Shown one piece after another: positions 3,432 to 60,852 of a stretch of 64,000 bases of DNA. The number at the start of each line of letters is the position of its first letter. The stretch's first letter is position 1. The stretch spans positions 1,425 to 65,424 of the forward strand of contig CAJOEV010000005.1 of assembly GCA_905233545.1 (NCBI GenBank), given 5' to 3'. This DNA is from an uncultured Eubacterium sp. GTDB taxonomy: Bacteria; Bacillota; Clostridia; Oscillospirales; Acutalibacteraceae. A program made the translations under genes and the position numbers. The notes under the pieces are model-generated. The model was not told the DNA's origin and searched no databases. It saw only the letters and a program-made list of their open reading frames with translations.

Positions 3432-3472
3432 AAAAAAGCCTCGGGAATTTAAAATTCCCGGGGCATTTTTTT
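3432..3472. terminator. bidirectional intrinsic terminator
   Basis: AAAAAAGCCTCGGGAATTTAAAATTCCCGGGGCATTTTTTT lies between convergent genes. Confidence 0.8.
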
Positions 3473-3479
3473 GCACTGA

Positions 3480-3680
3480 TTATTTGTTTGCAACATATTC
3501 CTTAATCTGTTCAAGAACATCGTCGCAGTTGATTCCGTGAACCATGCACGCTTCTTCAAGGGTTTCGCCGATTGAAGCAGGACAGCCAACGCAGTGCATT
3601 CCGTTTTGCATAAGAATTACTGCAATTCCTCTGTCAAATTCAAGCATTTCGCCCATTGTTGTCTCTTTTGTTATTTCCAT
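3480..3680 (-). CDS. DUF1858-type redox disulfide protein (hybrid-cluster-protein associated)
   Basis: MEITKETTMGEMLEFDRGIAVILMQNGMHCVGCPASIGETLEEACMVHGI. Start moved to ATG 3680, which is preceded by GGAGG. Confidence 0.75.
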   Translation of the reverse strand: MEITKETTMGEMLEFDRGIAVILMQNGMHCVGCPASIGETLEEACMVHGINCDDVLEQIKEYVANK

Positions 3681-3775: not shown

Positions 3776-3962
3776 AGGTGTTAGGTGTTAGGTGTTAGGT
3801 GTTAGGTTTTAGGGGTTAGGGGGTTGGTCGCTTAGCGGCGATTATATTTTCAAGAAAGGGGTCAGACCCCTTTCTTGATTTTGTGCTGTCACTGCACCGA
3901 AATTGTAGGGGAGGCTCTCCCGAGCCTCCCACAAATTCAACACCCAACCCCTAAACCCTAAA
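3776..3962. repeat. composite heptamer-arm element (TAGGTGT/TAGGGGT arms, core, terminator-like hairpin, GTAG-REP hairpin)
   Basis: Left arm 3776..3827 is (GGTGTTA)n..GGGGTTAGGGGGTTGG. Core is TCGCTTAGCGGCGATTATA. Hairpin CAAGAAAGGGG-TCAG-ACCCCTTTCTTG follows, then GTAG+GGGAGGCTC-TCCC-GAGCCTCCC at 3905..3930. Right arm 3937..3962 is CAACACCCAACCCCTAAACCCTAAAAA. Confidence 0.8.
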
Positions 3963-8445: not shown

Positions 8446-8724
8446 TAAGCAGGCTGAATCCGAAACACAAGCGGTTTTCAGATGCATATTTCCCTTTATA
8501 CTTCACAAAATTTCTTGAAAGACGCAAGTCTTCCTTCAAAATCTTGTTTCGCCTAAAAGAAAATCTGCTATCTGAAAACTGCTGCGCATTTCTCAGCCAG
8601 TCATTTTTTAGATAGTTTCGTCGTTAATCGACGAAGTTTTACCGGCGTAAATCGAGGAGATTATGGCGAAAATATCAGGAAAGGACGGCTGAGAAACGAT
8701 TGGATTTCGGGTTCAGCCTGCTTA
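8446..8724 (+). ncRNA. structured repeated element, copy 1 (unclassified; 5' leader of rlmB)
   Basis: 20-bp terminal helix TAAGCAGGCTGAATCCGAAA / TTTCGGGTTCAGCCTGCTTA. Internal helices are CGGTTTTCAGAT/ATCTGAAAACTG and TTCTCAGCC/GGCTGAGAA, plus hairpin TTTCGTCG-TTAA-TCGACGAA. Homologous to 63494..63715 on the other strand. Confidence 0.7.
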
Positions 8725-13043: not shown

Positions 13044-13131
13044 GGGAGGGTCGGGAGACCCTCCCCTACAATTTTTAATTGTCCGGGTAAAGCGAGAAAC
13101 CAAAAACTCGCAACTCGGAGCTCGCAACTTT
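13044..13131. repeat. REP hairpin with CTAC tail + half module (core + GAGTTGC-type arm)
   Basis: GGGAGGGTC-GGGA-GACCCTCCC-CTAC, then ACAATTTTTAATTGT, then CCGGGTAAAGCGAGAAACC, then AAAAACTCGCAACTCGGAGCTCGCAACTTT. It ends at the GH95 stop codon. Confidence 0.8.
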
Positions 13132-15229
13132 AAAAGACTTCTTCTTTAATAATCTTTCCGTTTTCAAACTCAAGATTAAGCGTTTTATTTCCGTAGAGCT
13201 TGATTCCCTTAACATATCCGCTCCAGTTTTTCGGAACACATCTTCTCTTAAACATCTCGGCAATGCCTGCTGCAACGCCGAAGTTTCCGTCAATCTGGAA
13301 GGGCGGATGAGCGTCGAACATATTGGGATAGCTTCCGCCGTGCCTGTATCCCACGCCCTCGGTAAATATCGGATACAGCTGATTTTTAATAAGAGTCATT
13401 GCATTTTCGGGATTATCCAGCCTTGCCCAGAGGCAAACCTTCCAGCCGAGCGACCAGCCCGTACCTCCGAAGCCTCTTGCATAGAGTGACGCTCTTGTTG
13501 CCTCTCTGATTTCCTCGCTCTGCTGAACGGCGGAGGGATAAACGCAGTAAAGATGGCTGACATGGCGGTGTTCGGGCTCTTTTTCCTCGTACTCCTTAAT
13601 CCACTCGTTGATTCTTCCGTCGCTTCCAATCGGAATGGGCGGAATTTCGGGTGTTTCAAATCCGAAGGCTCTGCAGTTTTCGAAGAATTCTTCAAGTATT
13701 CCGATATCCATTGTCGGCATATATGTAAGGCAAGCCCTTGTTCCGTTGTCAATAAAGGTGTTTTCGGGTGATGAACTCGGACAGGTTACATTAACGCCGT
13801 CCTTTTCAACAAGATAATCGTTGTAGAAATCAAGCACCTCTTTGAAACATGGCTTCATTTCTTCAAAAAGCGCCTTGTCCTCGGTATATCTGTAGTGTTC
13901 AAAAACCTGGTTGAGCATCCACGGAAGTGAACTGTTCCAATATGCGTAGCTCTCGGCGTGCGCTTTTCCGAGCGGGTCGCCTGCAGGACAGCTTGCTCCC
14001 CAGATATCGCTGTTATGATGTGCAACCGAGCCCGAGCAGTTATAGTAGTCCTTTGCGGTAACTCTTCCGTTTTCAATCATATGCTTAACCTGCTCGAAGA
14101 ACGGGCTGAAGCATTCCGAAAGATTGCAGATATCGGTGCACCAATAGTTCATTTCGGTGTTGATGTTCGTTGTGTAGTTCGATGACCAGGGCGCTCTGAG
14201 ATGTTCGTTGAAAATTCCCTGGAGGTTTGTTGCCTGAGTACCCTCTCGCGAGGAGGCAATGGTTAAATATCTTCCGTACTGGAACAGAAGTGCGGCAAGA
14301 TTGTTGTCCTTGTTTGGATGTTTTTGAAAACGCCTGATTCTTCTGTCCGTCGGAAGCTCTGTTTCCTCGCTGCCCAAATCGATTTCAACTCTGTTAAACA
14401 GCGAAGAATGGTCGGCAATATGCTCTTTGAGCATTTCACCGTAGTTTTTCGCATTTGAAAGATACGAAAGTGCGCGCGCTTTTGCGTCCGCTGTGGGCAT
14501 TGATTTATAATCAACAAAGCTTGTTGCAAGAGAAACGAAAATTGTTGTCTCTTCCTGCGAATTAATCAATATGCGGTCCTTTACGAACTCAGCGTTTCCG
14601 ACAACTCTTACGGCTGCACAGCAATTCATTGCGTTTTTTCCGTAATCGAAAACAACGCCGGTGTTATAATAAGGAGGCATACAAATTTCGGGAGCACGCC
14701 CCTCCATAAAGAGCGTTCTTTCGTCACAGTAAACCTTGTGCTTGAGCTGGCTCTTAAATCTGATTTTAAGAGATACATCCTCTTTGCACTTTATGTTAAT
14801 AACAAGAAGCTGGGCGGGATGGCTTACAAAAACAGTCTGACAAACAGCGTCATTCTCTGTTTTTGAAACGCCTGTTTCAAGGTCGAGTTCCCTTGTGTAG
14901 CCCTGCGCCTTTGCGCCTTCGTAGTCAATAATCAAATCCCCGAAAGGAAGATATGCTTCGCTCCAGTGACCGTGAAATTCAGTGTTTGCAATGCGGTTTG
15001 CTTCGTCGTGGTCCTCGTGAAATATCGCTGTTCTGAGCGCTTCGAGGTATTCGCCCGCGTCCTTTTTGTTGTGGTCCTTCGGATATCCCGACCAAAGGGA
15101 GTCCTCGTTAAGAGCAATTCTCTCCCTTTTAAGATTTCCGAAAACCATTGCGCCGATTCTGCCGTTGCCGACGGGCAGCGCTTCTTCCCATCTGATTGCT
15201 CTTCTCTTGTACCAAAGCTTGTTCTGCAT
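13130..15229 (-). CDS. glycoside hydrolase family 95 (alpha-L-fucosidase-like)
   Basis: MQNKLWYKRRAIRWEEALPVGNGRIGAMVFGN...NEDSLWSG is a GH95 N-terminal signature. Start at ATG 15229, preceded by GGGAGGTGG. Confidence 0.85.
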   Translation of the reverse strand: MQNKLWYKRRAIRWEEALPVGNGRIGAMVFGNLKRERIALNEDSLWSGYPKDHNKKDAGEYLEALRTAIFHEDHDEANRIANTEFHGHWSEAYLPFGDLIIDYEGAKAQGYTRELDLETGVSKTENDAVCQTVFVSHPAQLLVINIKCKEDVSLKIRFKSQLKHKVYCDERTLFMEGRAPEICMPPYYNTGVVFDYGKNAMNCCAAVRVVGNAEFVKDRILINSQEETTIFVSLATSFVDYKSMPTADAKARALSYLSNAKNYGEMLKEHIADHSSLFNRVEIDLGSEETELPTDRRIRRFQKHPNKDNNLAALLFQYGRYLTIASSREGTQATNLQGIFNEHLRAPWSSNYTTNINTEMNYWCTDICNLSECFSPFFEQVKHMIENGRVTAKDYYNCSGSVAHHNSDIWGASCPAGDPLGKAHAESYAYWNSSLPWMLNQVFEHYRYTEDKALFEEMKPCFKEVLDFYNDYLVEKDGVNVTCPSSSPENTFIDNGTRACLTYMPTMDIGILEEFFENCRAFGFETPEIPPIPIGSDGRINEWIKEYEEKEPEHRHVSHLYCVYPSAVQQSEEIREATRASLYARGFGGTGWSLGWKVCLWARLDNPENAMTLIKNQLYPIFTEGVGYRHGGSYPNMFDAHPPFQIDGNFGVAAGIAEMFKRRCVPKNWSGYVKGIKLYGNKTLNLEFENGKIIKEEVF

Positions 15230-15397
15230 AATCCACCTCCCGTGGAACAATTCCTTCTAACTGTTATTTGCCTTAGAAGCGCTTAGATTATACTTTATTA
15301 ATAAAATAAAGTAAATATGTTTTTTTATACAAAAATTTCGTTGATTATTAGTGAATATCATCAAATTTATGTAAAATGTCACAAATATTCAAAAAAC

Positions 15398-28206: not shown

Positions 28207-28250
28207 AGGGCGATTCTAAAATCGCCCCTACATCCTAACACCTAACACCT
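28207..28250. repeat. REP-like hairpin with CTAC tail + CCTAACA array
   Basis: GGGCGATT-CTAA-AATCGCCC-CTAC at 28208..28231, then ATCCTAACACCTAACACCT. It fills the gap between two convergent stops. Confidence 0.75.
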
Positions 28251-30222: not shown

Positions 30223-30251
30223 GCAGACGGAAAATTCCGTCTGCTTTTTTT
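30223..30251 (+). terminator. intrinsic terminator
   Basis: GCAGACGG-AAAATT-CCGTCTGC followed by TTTTTTT. Confidence 0.8.
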
Positions 30252-30690
30252 ATGCATAATATTCATCCTTGCCGATTAGCCATTTTCTTGGGTTTTCATC
30301 AATGTATTGAAGATGATAAAAATAATCTTCGTCGTCGCGGATAATGTGGTCGTAGAATCCCGTTTGCCATATGTTTTCACCGATTTGTTTATTGCAAAAT
30401 CGTTTTAATGTTCCAATATGCCTTGAAAGAAGTGAATTTGTAGGGAGCGGCGACCTCGACGCTCCATTGGTATCCGTTTTCTCAACCGAAACAATCAAAT
30501 GAATGTGATTCGGCATTATCACATATTTTTCAAATTTTATTTCTTCGTATCTTTTGTTCATCTCGATGATGTTGTTCTCAACAATTATGCCGTTTTTTGA
30601 TAAAACAATTTGCGGAGCGTCGGGGTCGCCGCTCCCTACAATAAAAAACGGGCGATTCGCGAATCGCTCCCACTGCCTAAAACCTAACAC
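30250..30690 (-). CDS. REP-associated tyrosine transposase (RAYT, IS200-like HUH), probably N-terminally truncated
   Basis: HUH motif in VIMPNHIHLIVSV. C-terminus is WQTGFYDHIIRDDEDYFYHLQYIDENPRKW. It lacks the YDYS..YFITICT N-terminal strand present in the paralog at 58958..59449. The N-terminal 17 aa are read from repeat sequence. Confidence 0.75.
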   Translation of the reverse strand: MLGFRQWERFANRPFFIVGSGDPDAPQIVLSKNGIIVENNIIEMNKRYEEIKFEKYVIMPNHIHLIVSVEKTDTNGASRSPLPTNSLLSRHIGTLKRFCNKQIGENIWQTGFYDHIIRDDEDYFYHLQYIDENPRKWLIGKDEYYA

Positions 30691-30712
30691 CTAAAACCTA
30701 ACACCTAAAAAA
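30614..30712. repeat. REP hairpin (CTAC tail) + GGGCGATTCGCGAATCGCTCCC hairpin + CCTAAAA/CCTAACA array
   Basis: GGAGCG-TCGGGGTCGC-CGCTCC-CTACAAT, then GGGCGATTCGCGAATCGCTCCC, then ACTGCCTAAAACCTAACACCTAAAACCTAACACCTAAAAAAA. It overlaps the 5' end of the RAYT ORF. Confidence 0.8.
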
Positions 30713-46424: not shown

Positions 46425-46600
46425 AAATGAAATATTGATATACAATATGAAATAATTTGCTAAAGAAAATTGTGAAATATCTCGTTTTGCTCGATATGAA
46501 ATAAAATTAATCCATTATACGCCGCAGGCGTATTTCATTGCAAAGCAATTTCATATTCTGAAAGAATATTTCATTAATCCGCAAGGATTAATTTAATTGG
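46425..46600. repeat. probable heptamer-arm element (ATGAAAT-type arms, TCGTTTTGCTCGAT core, small palindromes)
   Basis: TGAAAT/ATTTCA units occur on both sides. The centre carries TACGCC-GCA-GGCGTA and ATTAATCC-GCAA-GGATTAAT. Confidence 0.5.
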
Positions 46601-48325: not shown

Positions 48326-48566
48326 GCAAAAAGAGAACCCCGACAGTTTCTGTCGGGGTGATATTGTTTTAACAATATGATTTCTCTCGTCCGGACTTAT
48401 GATTTTCATCAATTACCGTCGGTTACGGAATTCCACCGTATCAGTCCTAAAAATTGTATCAATTTTTTGGAGTCGCAGACTTTTACTGCCGGTGAGGAAT
48501 AGGCATTCGATTACATTTTTTGTTACACAATATGTAGTTGAACGCTGCACCTCGCCCCGAAATATT
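48326..48566 (-). ncRNA. FMN riboswitch (RFN element) with terminator expression platform
   Basis: The minus strand carries CACCGGCAGTAAAAGTCTGCGAC, GGTGGAATTCCGTAACCGACGGTAA and AGTCCGGACGAGAGAA. The terminator is CCCCGACAG-AAA-CTGTCGGGG followed by TTCTCTTTTT (48326..48359). Confidence 0.85.
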
Positions 48567-48840
48567 TTGTGTTTTTGGTGCTTTTATTATAGCAAAAACC
48601 CCGATTTTGTCAATTTTTGTATTACATAATTAAATAAGTGTAATACAAAATACCCATTTTTATACACATAATTCGAAAATTGTCTATTAAACTATATTGA
48701 AATTTGACAACACCGATTAAATCTGTTATAAACTTAGCCGTTGCGAAGATATTACAAATTTGTAACAAAAAAACCAAAAAGGAGTAATTGTTATTAGTAT
48801 CAAAGTTAAAGCAGTTTCCGTTGTTCTTGCTGCAGCGTTC

Positions 48841-58957: not shown

Positions 58958-59449
58958 TTATGAATAGTATTCGTCTTTGCCCATTATCCACTTTTTTGGG
59001 TTTTCTTCAATATACTGAATATGATATAAATAATCTTCTTCGTTTCTGATAATGTGGTCGTAGTATGAGCGCTGCCAGAGTGTTGAGCCATATTTATGTG
59101 TTGTATATGACTTTATGTCTCTGATGATGTCCTGTAGGGGAGGGTTTCCGCGCCCTCCCATCATAGGTTTGCAGATTGAGACTAACAAATGAATATGATT
59201 AGGCATAATAATGTGTTTTTCAATACATATATTTTTAAACCTTGAATTTGTATATTCGATTGATTTCTGAACCTCAAGACCAATATCGGAAAGTTCTATT
59301 TTGGGGAGGGCGCGGAGACCCTCCCCTACATTTTTTACGGAAGAGAGAACACATTTCATATCCTCAGTACATATAGTTATGAAATATTTTCCGTTTGAGG
59401 AATAATCATAATCCTTCAACCTTGTAGGTTTTCGGTCTTTCTTTTCCAT
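58958..59449 (-). CDS. REP-associated tyrosine transposase (RAYT, IS200-like HUH), full length
   Basis: LKDYDYSSNGKYFITICT N-terminal strand. HUH motif in IIMPNHIHLLVSI. C-terminus WQRSYYDHIIRNEEDYLYHIQYIEENPKKW. Confidence 0.85.
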   Translation of the reverse strand: MEKKDRKPTRLKDYDYSSNGKYFITICTEDMKCVLSSVKNVGEGLRALPKIELSDIGLEVQKSIEYTNSRFKNICIEKHIIMPNHIHLLVSICKPMMGGRGNPPLQDIIRDIKSYTTHKYGSTLWQRSYYDHIIRNEEDYLYHIQYIEENPKKWIMGKDEYYS

Positions 59450-59451
59450 TA

Positions 59452-60852
59452 TTATTTAGTAAAAAATGTCAAGAATGCTTTATATGTCATATAAACATCG
59501 GTTTTTGCAACGATTTCATACGGTGCGTGCATTGAAAGAACGGGAACGCCGACGTCGATTGTGTCAACATCCATATTTGCAATGAAGAGCGCAACCGTTC
59601 CTCCGCCTCCGTTATCAACCTTGCCGAGCTCACCGCTCTGCCAGAGCACGCCGTTATCCTCAAGCATTGCCTTAACAAAGCTAACAAATTCCGCCGATGC
59701 GTCGCTTGTTGAGTATTTTCCGCCGTGGCCTGTGAACTTTGTTACGCAAACGCCCTGATTAACGAAGCTTGCATTATTTTTTTCAAATGCGCTGCCCCAG
59801 GTCGGGTCATATGCAGCGTTAACATCCGCTGAAAGACACATTGAGTTGCGAAGAACATCCCTTCCTTCATATCCCTCAAGTCTTGCTAGGTCCTCGATGA
59901 AGTATTTTAGATAGGATGACGCAAGACCCGTGTTTCCGTCGGAGCCGATTTCTTCTTTATCGGTTAAAACGGTTATTGCCGTATATTCGGGAGCATCCTC
60001 GATATCAAGAATTGCCTGGAGTGCGGGATATGCGCAAACCCTGTCGTCGTGACCGTATCCGCCGATTAAGCTTCTGTCAAAGCCGATATCGTCAACGGCA
60101 AATGCAGGAACAAGCTCAAGCTCTGCTGAAAGAAAATCTCTTTCAACAATTCCGTACTTTTCATAGAGAAGCGAAAGCAGATTGAGCTTTATTCTCTCGC
60201 TTTCCTCGTCATCCTTAAATGGTCTTGAGCCGATAACAACATTGAGCTCCTCGCCCTTGACTATGTCGTTTGCCTTTCTCTGCATCTGCTCTTTATCAAG
60301 GTGGGGAAGAAGGTCGGTTATGCAGAATTTGGGCTCGCCCGGTGCTTCGCCGATTTTAACATCAACAAAGCTTCCGTCGTTTTTGCATATTCTTCCGTGG
60401 AGCGAAAGCGGAATTGCCGTCCATTGATATTTTTTAATACCGCCGTAGTAGTGGGTTTTGAAAAAGCCGAGTCCATCCTCTTCAAAAACGGGGCACTGCT
60501 TAAGGTCGATTCTCGGTGAATCGATATGTGCGGCTGAAATTCTTACGCCGTCCTTAATGCTTCTTTTGCCCTTAACGCAGAGAATTATTGCCTTGCCCCT
60601 GTTTGCGCGGTAAACCTTATCACCTGCACTGAGCGCTTCGCCGAATTCATCAAGCTTAACAAAGCCGTTTGAAAGGGCAATATCCTTAACGAAGGAAGCA
60701 ACCTCTCTTTCGGTTTTGCATTCCTGAAGAAATTCCTTATATCCTTCGCAAAAATCATCGCAAACAGAAAGCTCTTCTTCGCTCATAAAGTCAATTGCAT
60801 TTTCTTTTTTGTTAAAAAGCATTTCTTTGAGCTGTTTTGTTTTTTCACTCAT
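59452..60852 (-). CDS. M18-family aminopeptidase
   Basis: 466 aa containing ISAAHIDSPRIDLK and ...YGHDDRVCAY.... Confidence 0.8.
   Translation of the reverse strand: MSEKTKQLKEMLFNKKENAIDFMSEEELSVCDDFCEGYKEFLQECKTEREVASFVKDIALSNGFVKLDEFGEALSAGDKVYRANRGKAIILCVKGKRSIKDGVRISAAHIDSPRIDLKQCPVFEEDGLGFFKTHYYGGIKKYQWTAIPLSLHGRICKNDGSFVDVKIGEAPGEPKFCITDLLPHLDKEQMQRKANDIVKGEELNVVIGSRPFKDDEESERIKLNLLSLLYEKYGIVERDFLSAELELVPAFAVDDIGFDRSLIGGYGHDDRVCAYPALQAILDIEDAPEYTAITVLTDKEEIGSDGNTGLASSYLKYFIEDLARLEGYEGRDVLRNSMCLSADVNAAYDPTWGSAFEKNNASFVNQGVCVTKFTGHGGKYSTSDASAEFVSFVKAMLEDNGVLWQSGELGKVDNGGGGTVALFIANMDVDTIDVGVPVLSMHAPYEIVAKTDVYMTYKAFLTFFTK

Follow-up and report, generated by a model that had tools for sequence, protein, structure and literature searches.

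Organization of the W1 gene and its internal REPs

The stretch analysed here, 64,000 nucleotides (nt) of contig CAJOEV010000005.1 from an uncultured Eubacterium sp. (in the following, the window), contains a gene of the REP-associated tyrosine transposase type (RAYT, also TnpA-REP; REP, repetitive extragenic palindrome), designated W1, which carries two REPs within its own reading frame. W1 is situated at 58958..59449 on the reverse strand (-) and encodes a full-length protein of 163 amino acids with intact HUH and tyrosine motifs. The codons of the HUH motif, P83-N-H-I-H87, lie at 59189..59203 (-) between REP 1 and REP 2, and those of the catalytic-tyrosine motif, Y146-I-E-E-N-P151, which aligns to YIYINP of the Escherichia coli TnpA-REP structure 4ER8, at 58997..59014 (-); a WQ motif is also present in the translation. 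The original prediction for this DNA, a full-length RAYT gene with an inverted pair of GTAG-tailed REPs in frame on either side of the HUH motif, was borne out: the two arms constitute one inverted repeat of 27 nt, complementary at 26 of 27 positions (96%), and the HUH codons are bracketed by them, with 144 nt between the arms.

REP 1, the 5' copy in the gene, is located at 59303..59330 (-) and reads TGTAG-GGGAGGG-TCTCCGCG-CCCTCCCC. It encodes V41-P49 (VGEGLRALP), with GTAG read as GTA-GGx (Val-Gly); viewed on the forward strand (+) it is GGGAGGG-CGCGGAGA-CCCTCCC-CTACA (59304-59330), and its DNA hairpin has a calculated energy of -9.3 kcal/mol. REP 2, the inverted copy, is located at 59133..59159 (+) with the sequence TGTAG-GGGAGGG-TTTCCGCG-CCCTCCC (-7.4 kcal/mol as a DNA hairpin); its coding-strand sequence is GGGAGGG-CGCGGAAA-CCCTCCC-CTACA, which encodes G98-Q106 (GGRGNPPLQ). 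The arm hairpins of W1 consist of a stem of 7-8 bp and a loop of 8 nt, and range as DNA from -7.3 to -9.3 kcal/mol. On the antisense strand (window 59303-59335 (+)), TACATTTTTT comes after REP 1 and the site scores as terminator-like; this reading is probably incidental, the T-run not being conserved in the orthologs.

The core pattern GGGAGGG-N8-CCCTCCC, with up to two mismatches, occurs at four sites in the window, as against 0.03 expected from shuffled sequences. Outside the RAYT genes, it is found at 3909-3930 and 13044-13065, both intergenic and both with a GTAG/CTAC tail, in agreement with the intergenic members of the same stem family that had been predicted at 3905 and 13044. Only two inverted repeats in the window combine a length of 22 nt or more, a complementarity of 96% or more and arms no further than 400 bp apart, one inside W1 and the other inside a second RAYT gene, W2.

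The paralog W2 lies at 30250..30690 (-) and is 46% identical to residues 41-163 of W1 (tblastn). Its inverted repeat, TTGTAGGGAGCG...CGCTCC, comprises 28 nt (27/28 complementary, 96%) with 148 nt between the arms, so that the two paralogs possess pairs with different stems at equivalent positions, as had been noticed originally. REP 1 of W2 is situated at 30614..30641 (-) and reads TTGTAG-GGAGCG-GCGACCCCGA-CGCTCC; REP 2, the inverted copy, is situated at 30438..30465 (+). The CTACA is read CTA-CAG in W1 and, on the coding strand of W2, CCT-ACA (Pro-Thr). Each of the internal arms of W1 and W2 folds as a DNA hairpin, with energies from -6.7 to -10.4 kcal/mol. The second paralog is not a full-length gene: W2 is homologous to W1 from residue 41 on only and does not possess the N-terminal ~40 residues including strand beta1, and its truncation point is exactly its REP 1. 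W2 is probably defective. Directly upstream of its REP 1, at the missing N-terminal coding region, a REP-like palindrome, GTGGGAGCGATTCGCGAATCGCCC, with a T-run is found at 30650..30673 (-), a degenerate copy from the family of the REP at 28208-28231 described below; a tandem of AGGTGTTAGGTTTT (x2) is situated further upstream at about 30676-30706.

Identity and predicted fold of the W1 protein

The top NCBIfam match of W1 is REP_Tyr_transpos (NF047646, 'REP-associated tyrosine transposase'; E=2.8e-16), and a profile built from 23 members of the W1 family had as its sole sequence match in the PDB the E. coli TnpA-REP protein (4er8_A, E=1.1e-9). The AlphaFold2 (AF2) model of W1 has a predicted local distance difference test score (pLDDT) of 81.9; in a Foldseek search with this model, 4er8_A ranks first (E=2e-7, template modelling (TM) score 0.58), before ISDra2 and IS608 TnpA. 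More than 4,200 homologs of W1 exist, the closest of which come from Oscillospiraceae, Ruminococcus, and other Clostridia metagenome-assembled genomes, and the databases label W1 homologs as 'transposase' or 'RayT'. An alignment of homologs shows no variation at M82, P83 and N84 and a conservation of at least 90% at H85, I86 and H87; the tyrosine motif is conserved too, with YIENNP, YIDTNP and YIDSNP in homologs compared with YIEENP in W1. Judged by sequence and modelled fold, W1 is a RAYT-type HUH/Tyr protein of the TnpA-REP class.

Compared with 4ER8, the link between beta1 and alphaA is longer by ~16 residues and that between beta3 and alphaC by ~5 residues, and both extra segments coincide with the REPs. 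In the AF2 model, a beta-hairpin formed by strands 36-41 and 48-53 stands between beta1 and alphaA, and REP 1 encodes its tip; REP 2 corresponds to a low-confidence loop (93-104) preceding helix alphaC. Two homologs without internal REPs, L072 and L073.1, exhibit correspondingly shorter loops and look intact. The suspicion that the hairpin-coding loops are insertions was thus supported by the comparison of homologs, and since the REP-less proteins with shorter loops look intact, the REP-coded peptides appear to be dispensable surface segments, whose location in surface loops would explain why they are tolerated.

Conservation of the REP pair among homologs

Homologs 37-59% identical were sampled from 80 genome loci, mostly of Clostridia genomes, and 89 gene copies were analysed. 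Pairs were counted in 87 copies with a HUH-anchored scan for GT[AG]G-tailed hairpins combined with manual reading. Such hairpins flank the HUH motif on both sides in 78/87 copies and on one side in 5/87; in 4/87 none was found. The REPs fall into at least 27 clusters (19/22 identity or better), including GGGAGGG, GGGGCGATG, GGGACGGCG, GGGCAGGGGCTTGC, GGGCGCGCATTGCGCGCCC, and GGGCGATTCATGAATCGCCC, and every type begins with GTAG-GGG or GTAG-GG. Over the 22 nt following GTAG, arm 1 and the reverse complement of arm 2 exhibit an identity of 0.89 within a gene versus 0.51 between genes. Concerning the hairpin loops, the two arms match to 0.84 as inverted copies and to 0.30 as direct copies. A loop common to both arms in direct orientation (AGGG in both) was seen solely in L021.

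The position of the pair relative to the reading frame was scored in 58 genes, taken from a best-inverted-repeat classifier that under-counted pairs: GTAG of REP 1 lies in frame 0 in all of them (58/58), mostly 43 codons before the HUH motif, and CTAC of REP 2, a repeat situated 11-19 codons after it by one reckoning and about 17-25 codons by another, lies in frame 1 in 35 genes, in frame 0 in 20, and in frame 2 in 3. These data bear on the notion that the palindromes are a by-product of Gly- and Pro-rich loops encoded by GGG and CCC codons. VGEGLxALP and GGHGxPPLQ are, in fact, the most conserved peptide stretches among close homologs; however, the encoded peptides change wholly with the REP type (VGEGLRALP, VGSGDPDAP, VGDDAHIVP, VGAIHESP), whereas the hairpins and the identity of the arms are kept. 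The three frames of CTAC, the fixation of rare GC-rich codons in the arms at a GC content of 42% in the window, and the intergenic occurrence of the same DNA likewise speak against this notion, the probability of which we consider negligible. The dependence is rather the reverse, i.e., the peptides V-G-x-G...P and G...P-P/L are by-products of GTA-GGG...CCC.

In four syntenic orthologs, the arms exhibit 93-94% nucleotide identity versus 79% in the remaining gene. Where these orthologs share an amino acid, the codon is also the same at 92/103 positions in the arms versus 407/612 elsewhere (Fisher p=7e-7). The two arms agree in carrying CGTG in L081 and CGCG in L084, a matched change whose cost in arm 2 is an Arg-to-His replacement. 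Given the three frames of CTAC, the conserved synonymous sites, and the covariation of the loops between the arms, the constraint acts on DNA and not on protein. The 'compensatory conservation' of structure that had been proposed from the two paralogs therefore extends to the homologs, with 78 of 87 copies paired and at least 27 REP sequences. Palindromes arising by chance or driven by the protein had been considered as a candidate explanation and were ruled out by the shuffle expectation, the three frames of CTAC, and the excess of identical arm codons.

With the REP-coded residues excluded from the protein comparison, REP identity climbs from 0.37 to 0.88 with protein identity, and the correlation in a Mantel test (r=0.28) is reached in 0/999 permutations. 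The results indicate that the internal pair is an old element that diverges along with the enzyme and the two arms of which evolve in a concerted manner. Passive passengers, that is, independent recent insertions into two permissive loops by an enzyme acting in cis and without a maintained role, would not be expected to show this co-divergence, nor to put REP 1 at one codon position in the majority of genes, in frame 0 wherever it was scored, nor to yield syntenic orthologs that share the pair, keep its synonymous sites, and change both arms in step. Such insertions are nevertheless suggested by the fact that many unrelated genes have received in-frame REPs (Di Nocera 2013), by the REP-less homologs with shorter loops and the additional tandem REPs of L007 and L057, and by Quentin et al. 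2018 (PMC6006769), who call the internal copies insertions into a peripheral variable region. On balance, we regard a purely passive pair as decidedly unlikely.

The inverted repeat might also be selected at the level of the mRNA, where the arms could pair over a long range around the HUH segment and thereby throttle translation or make an RNase III site, such that the nuclease is kept scarce. The minimum free energy fold of the 226-nt sense RNA is in fact a long-range duplex of 26 bp (-79.4 kcal/mol versus -45.9 kcal/mol in shuffles, z=-7.9), the covariation of the loops between the arms is expected from long-range pairing, and the RAYT start, without an obvious Shine-Dalgarno sequence, abuts the upstream stop codon. 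The mismatches between the arms, however, amount to 43 G-U and 41 A-C on the sense strand (p=0.91), and this missing excess of G-U gives no sign of a role at the mRNA level. Furthermore, a duplex could do without the GTAG/CTAC tails, which are strictly conserved and constitute the tetranucleotide of RAYT recognition, and the same sequences are found as solitary extragenic REPs. A selected mRNA duplex therefore appears unlikely.

A near-perfect 27-nt inverted repeat around a short segment within a gene is also the arrangement of an intragenic inversion switch, in which recombination between the arms would flip the 144-bp HUH segment and turn the gene off or on. The HUH segment was found in coding orientation in 89/89 gene copies, however, no invertase or recombinase gene lies beside the locus, either in the window or among the orthologs, and GTAG-tailed hairpins are the signature of RAYTs and not a recombinase site; such a switch is highly improbable.

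Some of the homologous loci contain rearranged copies. In L049 (5606-5917), a RAYT paralog has lost the whole HUH segment by a deletion that keeps the frame and extends from REP 1 past REP 2, with the N- and C-terminal parts still forming one open reading frame (ORF). Together with the truncation of W2, this deletion hints that DNA breaks occur at the REPs, although these are two anecdotes. Extra tandem REPs exist in L007 (4234/4264) and L057 (8607/8664), within the RAYT gene or at its margin, with the protein lengthened; they match the 'variable length insertions' mentioned for subclass 2.4 (see below).

Genomic context of W1

Upstream of W1, an M18 aminopeptidase gene is situated at 59452..60852 (-), the stop codon of which lies 2 nt before the RAYT ATG; it is likely the operon partner of W1. 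A promoter-like site precedes this peptidase gene (60931-60903 (-)), and a terminator-like hairpin follows the W1 stop codon (58945-58918 (-)). The orthologs of W1 (75-83% identity) exhibit the same order as the window, i.e., M18 peptidase, RAYT, and SleB-like hydrolase gene; in the orthologs and in the window, the RAYT start abuts the M18 stop and the RAYT gene converges on the SleB-like hydrolase gene. Because of this conserved chromosomal context, W1 appears to be a domesticated, vertically inherited RAYT rather than an insertion sequence. RAYT paralogs within one locus are diverged and not identical.

REPs outside RAYT genes

Solitary REPs of the W1 type are found at two intergenic sites of the window. 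The first, at 13044..13069 (-), reads GTAGGGGAGGG-TCTCCCGA-CCCTCCC followed by TTTTT (-10.6 kcal/mol) and lies 61 nt after the stop codon of the gene at 13130..15250 (-). Residues 98-129 of W1 are weakly similar (tblastn, E=0.054) to window 13045-13131 (+), starting at this REP, and that segment could be a decayed 3' fragment of a RAYT gene or merely a REP-coded peptide; as the similarity rests mainly on 9 REP-coded residues, the site is treated here as a solitary REP and not as a RAYT remnant. The second, a 'double-foot' REP at 3905..3935 (+), reads GTAGGGGAGGC-TCTCCCGA-GCCTCCCACAA (-12.3 kcal/mol), with GTAG on the forward and GTGG on the reverse strand, and is situated in a divergent intergenic region. 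A REP of a third type, GTAGGGGCGATTTTAGAATCGCCC followed by TTTT, is located between convergent genes at 28208..28231 (-) (-9.3 kcal/mol, z=-6.2). The REPs at 13044-13069 (-) and 28208-28231 (-) stand just past a stop codon with a T-run on that strand and look like intrinsic terminators, too.

Counted over 1.23 Mb of homologous loci and the window, the density of GTAG hairpins is 1.9 per kb within RAYT genes versus 0.07 per kb outside. The related loci contain 85 extragenic GTAG hairpins, 31 of which have the stem of the internal REP of the same locus. A census of such own-type REPs in the flanks (up to 2 mismatches over 24 nt, or an exact stem) found few extragenic copies; as the control loci hold internal copies of their own, no enrichment is claimed from this census. 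REP-rich loci include that of a Synergistaceae genome (L022), that of Acetobacterium fimetarium (L072), and L073. In L072, the RAYT gene lacks internal REPs and has short loops; eight extragenic REPs (GTAGGGGCGATCCGYGATCGCCC) flank it, of which four are spaced with a period of 65 nt, and these arrays (7-224, 2658-2758, 3451-3554) represent the classical REPtron layout as opposed to the layout with an internal pair.

In metagenome contigs, the exact W1-type pattern was found at 137 sites, and all but one of these (136) lie outside RAYT-like ORFs. Since a G/C-rich pattern of 18 bases may match by chance, weight is given to recurrent loops and to loci with several sites and not to this raw count. 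The loops CCTCTGTG (x12), CCTATGTG (x8), CCTCTGCG (x8), and TCTCCGTG (x7) recur and several loci contain multiple sites; because of the recurring loops, the W1-type sites are considered to include real repeat families. The original prediction had suggested searching for copies of the ~200-bp REP doublet elsewhere, with the gene-internal doublet as a possible master copy for dispersal. Beyond the RAYT paralog genes, neither such doublets nor isolated copies of the HUH segment were found in the 64-kb window or in about 1.9 Mb of related loci (genomes, 1.2 Mb; metagenomes, 0.66 Mb), and the master-copy idea is not favoured on account of this result.

Comparison with known systems

The TnpA-Y1 family was divided into subclasses by Quentin, Siguier, Chandler and Fichant (2018, BMC Genomics 19:475; PMC6006769). 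According to that paper, subclass 2.4, which corresponds to RAYT group 4 in Bertels et al. 2017, possesses the motifs NH[IFV]H (HuH), WQ, and YIxNNP, and its REPs are either 'long canonical', in which GT[AG]G is joined to a stem whose first three pairs are G-C, or 'double foot'. REPs located within tnpA-REP genes, in the variable beta3-alphaC region and with the frame unbroken, are presented there as a striking trait that is unique to this subclass. The assumption of the original prediction that REPs only flank RAYT genes, and that embedded ones are undescribed, is therefore not tenable. W1 shares with the published subclass the NHIH and WQ motifs, GTAG REPs, a double-foot copy (3905-3935), and an in-gene REP at beta3-alphaC; its tyrosine motif YIEENP fits Y-I-x-x-N-P but deviates from the published YIxNNP. 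Several of the REPs in Table S1 of that paper, e.g., GTAGGGGCGACCC...GGGTCGCCC and GTAGGGGCAATTCATGAATTGCCCCTAC, are near-identical in style to those of the W1 clade. Apart from the tyrosine motif, W1 fits subclass 2.4 by its motifs, REP type and in-gene REPs.

Despite this general similarity, there are differences from the published account. The W1 clade has a fixed REP before the HUH motif, a conserved inverted pair, concerted arms, and co-divergence of the REP with the protein; it belongs to Clostridia (Oscillospiraceae, Acutalibacteraceae), whereas the published subclass is mainly found in Cyanobacteria and Bacteroidetes. Most genes of the W1 clade have no flanking REPs. When PubMed Central and bioRxiv were searched for REPs within RAYT genes, Quentin et al. 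2018 was the only paper returned, and no text was found there that describes a REP before the HUH motif, a conserved inverted pair, concerted arms, or a Clostridia clade, although Figure S10 of that paper may show part of this. Measured against the published description, W1 is a Clostridial case of a published kind, with an architecture that is more regular than this description suggests.

In-frame palindromes translated as surface peptides are also known from Rickettsia palindromic elements and from intragenic GTAG/CGTC REPs in other genes (Di Nocera et al. 2013). Those, however, reside in unrelated host genes at non-conserved sites, whereas in the W1 clade they reside at conserved sites in the gene of the cognate enzyme itself.

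The E. coli TnpA-REP protein (subclass 2.2) resembles W1 in its fold, its HUH and Tyr motifs, the GTAG-hairpin type of substrate, and the single-copy, vertically inherited gene. Its REPs, in contrast, flank the gene as BIME/REPIN pairs with none inside, and the protein has neither the ~16-residue beta1-alphaA insertion nor a beta3-alphaC loop as long as that of W1. This E. coli REPtron was reportedly described by Ton-Hoang in 2012 and by Messing in 2012 (PDB 4ER8). REPINs, which are said to go back to Bertels and Rainey in 2011, are similar to the W1 pair in that two inverted, RAYT-associated REPs with GTAG outward are combined; unlike the W1 pair, they are non-coding, have a short spacer, form a single long hairpin, and number tens to hundreds of dispersed copies. 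The arms of W1 can pair over a long range, but its spacer consists of 144 nt of essential, non-palindromic coding sequence, and, as stated, dispersed doublets were not found in about 1.9 Mb. In IS200/IS605 elements, subterminal hairpins flank tnpA, and the elements occur in multiple identical copies with no fixed chromosomal site. The hairpins of W1, by contrast, are internal and not subterminal-flanking, its gene is syntenic, and its motif is Y...NP and not Y...Q. To our knowledge, transposition of a REP by a RAYT has not been demonstrated for any system.

Interpretation of the internal pair

Taken together, we consider it likely that W1 is a subclass 2.4 RAYT, i.e., a domesticated, vertically inherited HUH/Tyr nuclease of single-stranded DNA and relative of IS200 transposases, which carries two inverted, in-frame copies of its cognate GTAG REP. 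What is preserved, by selection or by homogenisation, would be the DNA itself, that is, GTAG, the G/C-rich stem, and the near-identical arms including their loops. By analogy to the E. coli TnpA-REP/REP complex, the enzyme would recognise GTAG and a hairpin on single-stranded DNA, and the internal copies would offer one site for binding and cleavage per strand of its own gene. A cut-and-rejoin activity, or gene conversion with extragenic REPs, may keep the arms and the dispersed REPs alike, and with enzyme and substrate physically linked, changes in REP type and protein specificity would be inherited together. The pair may function as a linked seed copy or in autoregulation, or may be a passenger.

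Several points weigh against this reading. The score of W1 against NF047646 (59.7 bits) is below the equivalog cutoff of 80, and a Pfam search with the W1 protein gave no match to Y1_Tnp (PF01797); a precomputed PF01797 match is present in many of its close homologs, however, and we attribute the failure of the curated models to a divergent member of the family that is interrupted by two loop insertions, such that it is not evidence against homology. The first N of the published motif YIxNNP is not conserved in YIEENP of W1. The four homologs without internal REPs look intact, and hence the pair is not essential for the protein. With the strict stem pattern, extragenic copies of a gene's own REP in the flanks are sparse (15 in 0.86 Mb). 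Finally, binding and cleavage in this clade are extrapolated from the E. coli protein, a member of another subclass (2.2).

A more far-reaching version of the preferred reading, which we put forward tentatively and rate as possible rather than probable, is that the pair constitutes an obligatory co-evolving cis element: a 'REPIN' whose spacer codes for the HUH strand, in which enzyme and seed substrate are inseparable and which fixes the REP type of the genome. If true, REPs would be homogenised from or to the internal copies, enzyme specificity and REP sequence would shift together, and the clade would provide a compact model of RAYT-REP co-evolution.

The clade offers thousands of natural variants in which an enzyme and two substrate copies are combined in one gene of ~490 bp, with at least 27 REP types covarying with the protein. 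Such a data set serves to infer which protein residues read which features of the REP, and is relevant to the questions of how REP families and RAYT enzymes stay matched and of how REPs spread; a single gene containing its own substrates is also a simple construct for in vitro work. Concerning annotation, the most conserved 'protein motifs' of the family (VGxG...P, G...PP[LT]) mirror a DNA element, and curated family models break on them.

Other features of the window

At Rfam gathering thresholds, no match was found at either RAYT locus (W1, W2). Elsewhere in the window, a flavin mononucleotide (FMN) riboswitch at 48375-48568 (-) (70.8 bits) and a Gut-1 small RNA (sRNA) at 46527-46599 (-) (63.4 bits) score above their Rfam gathering scores. 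A further inverted repeat of 36 nt, 83% complementary and with 207 nt between its arms (8446-8481 and 8689-8724), is unrelated to the REPs.

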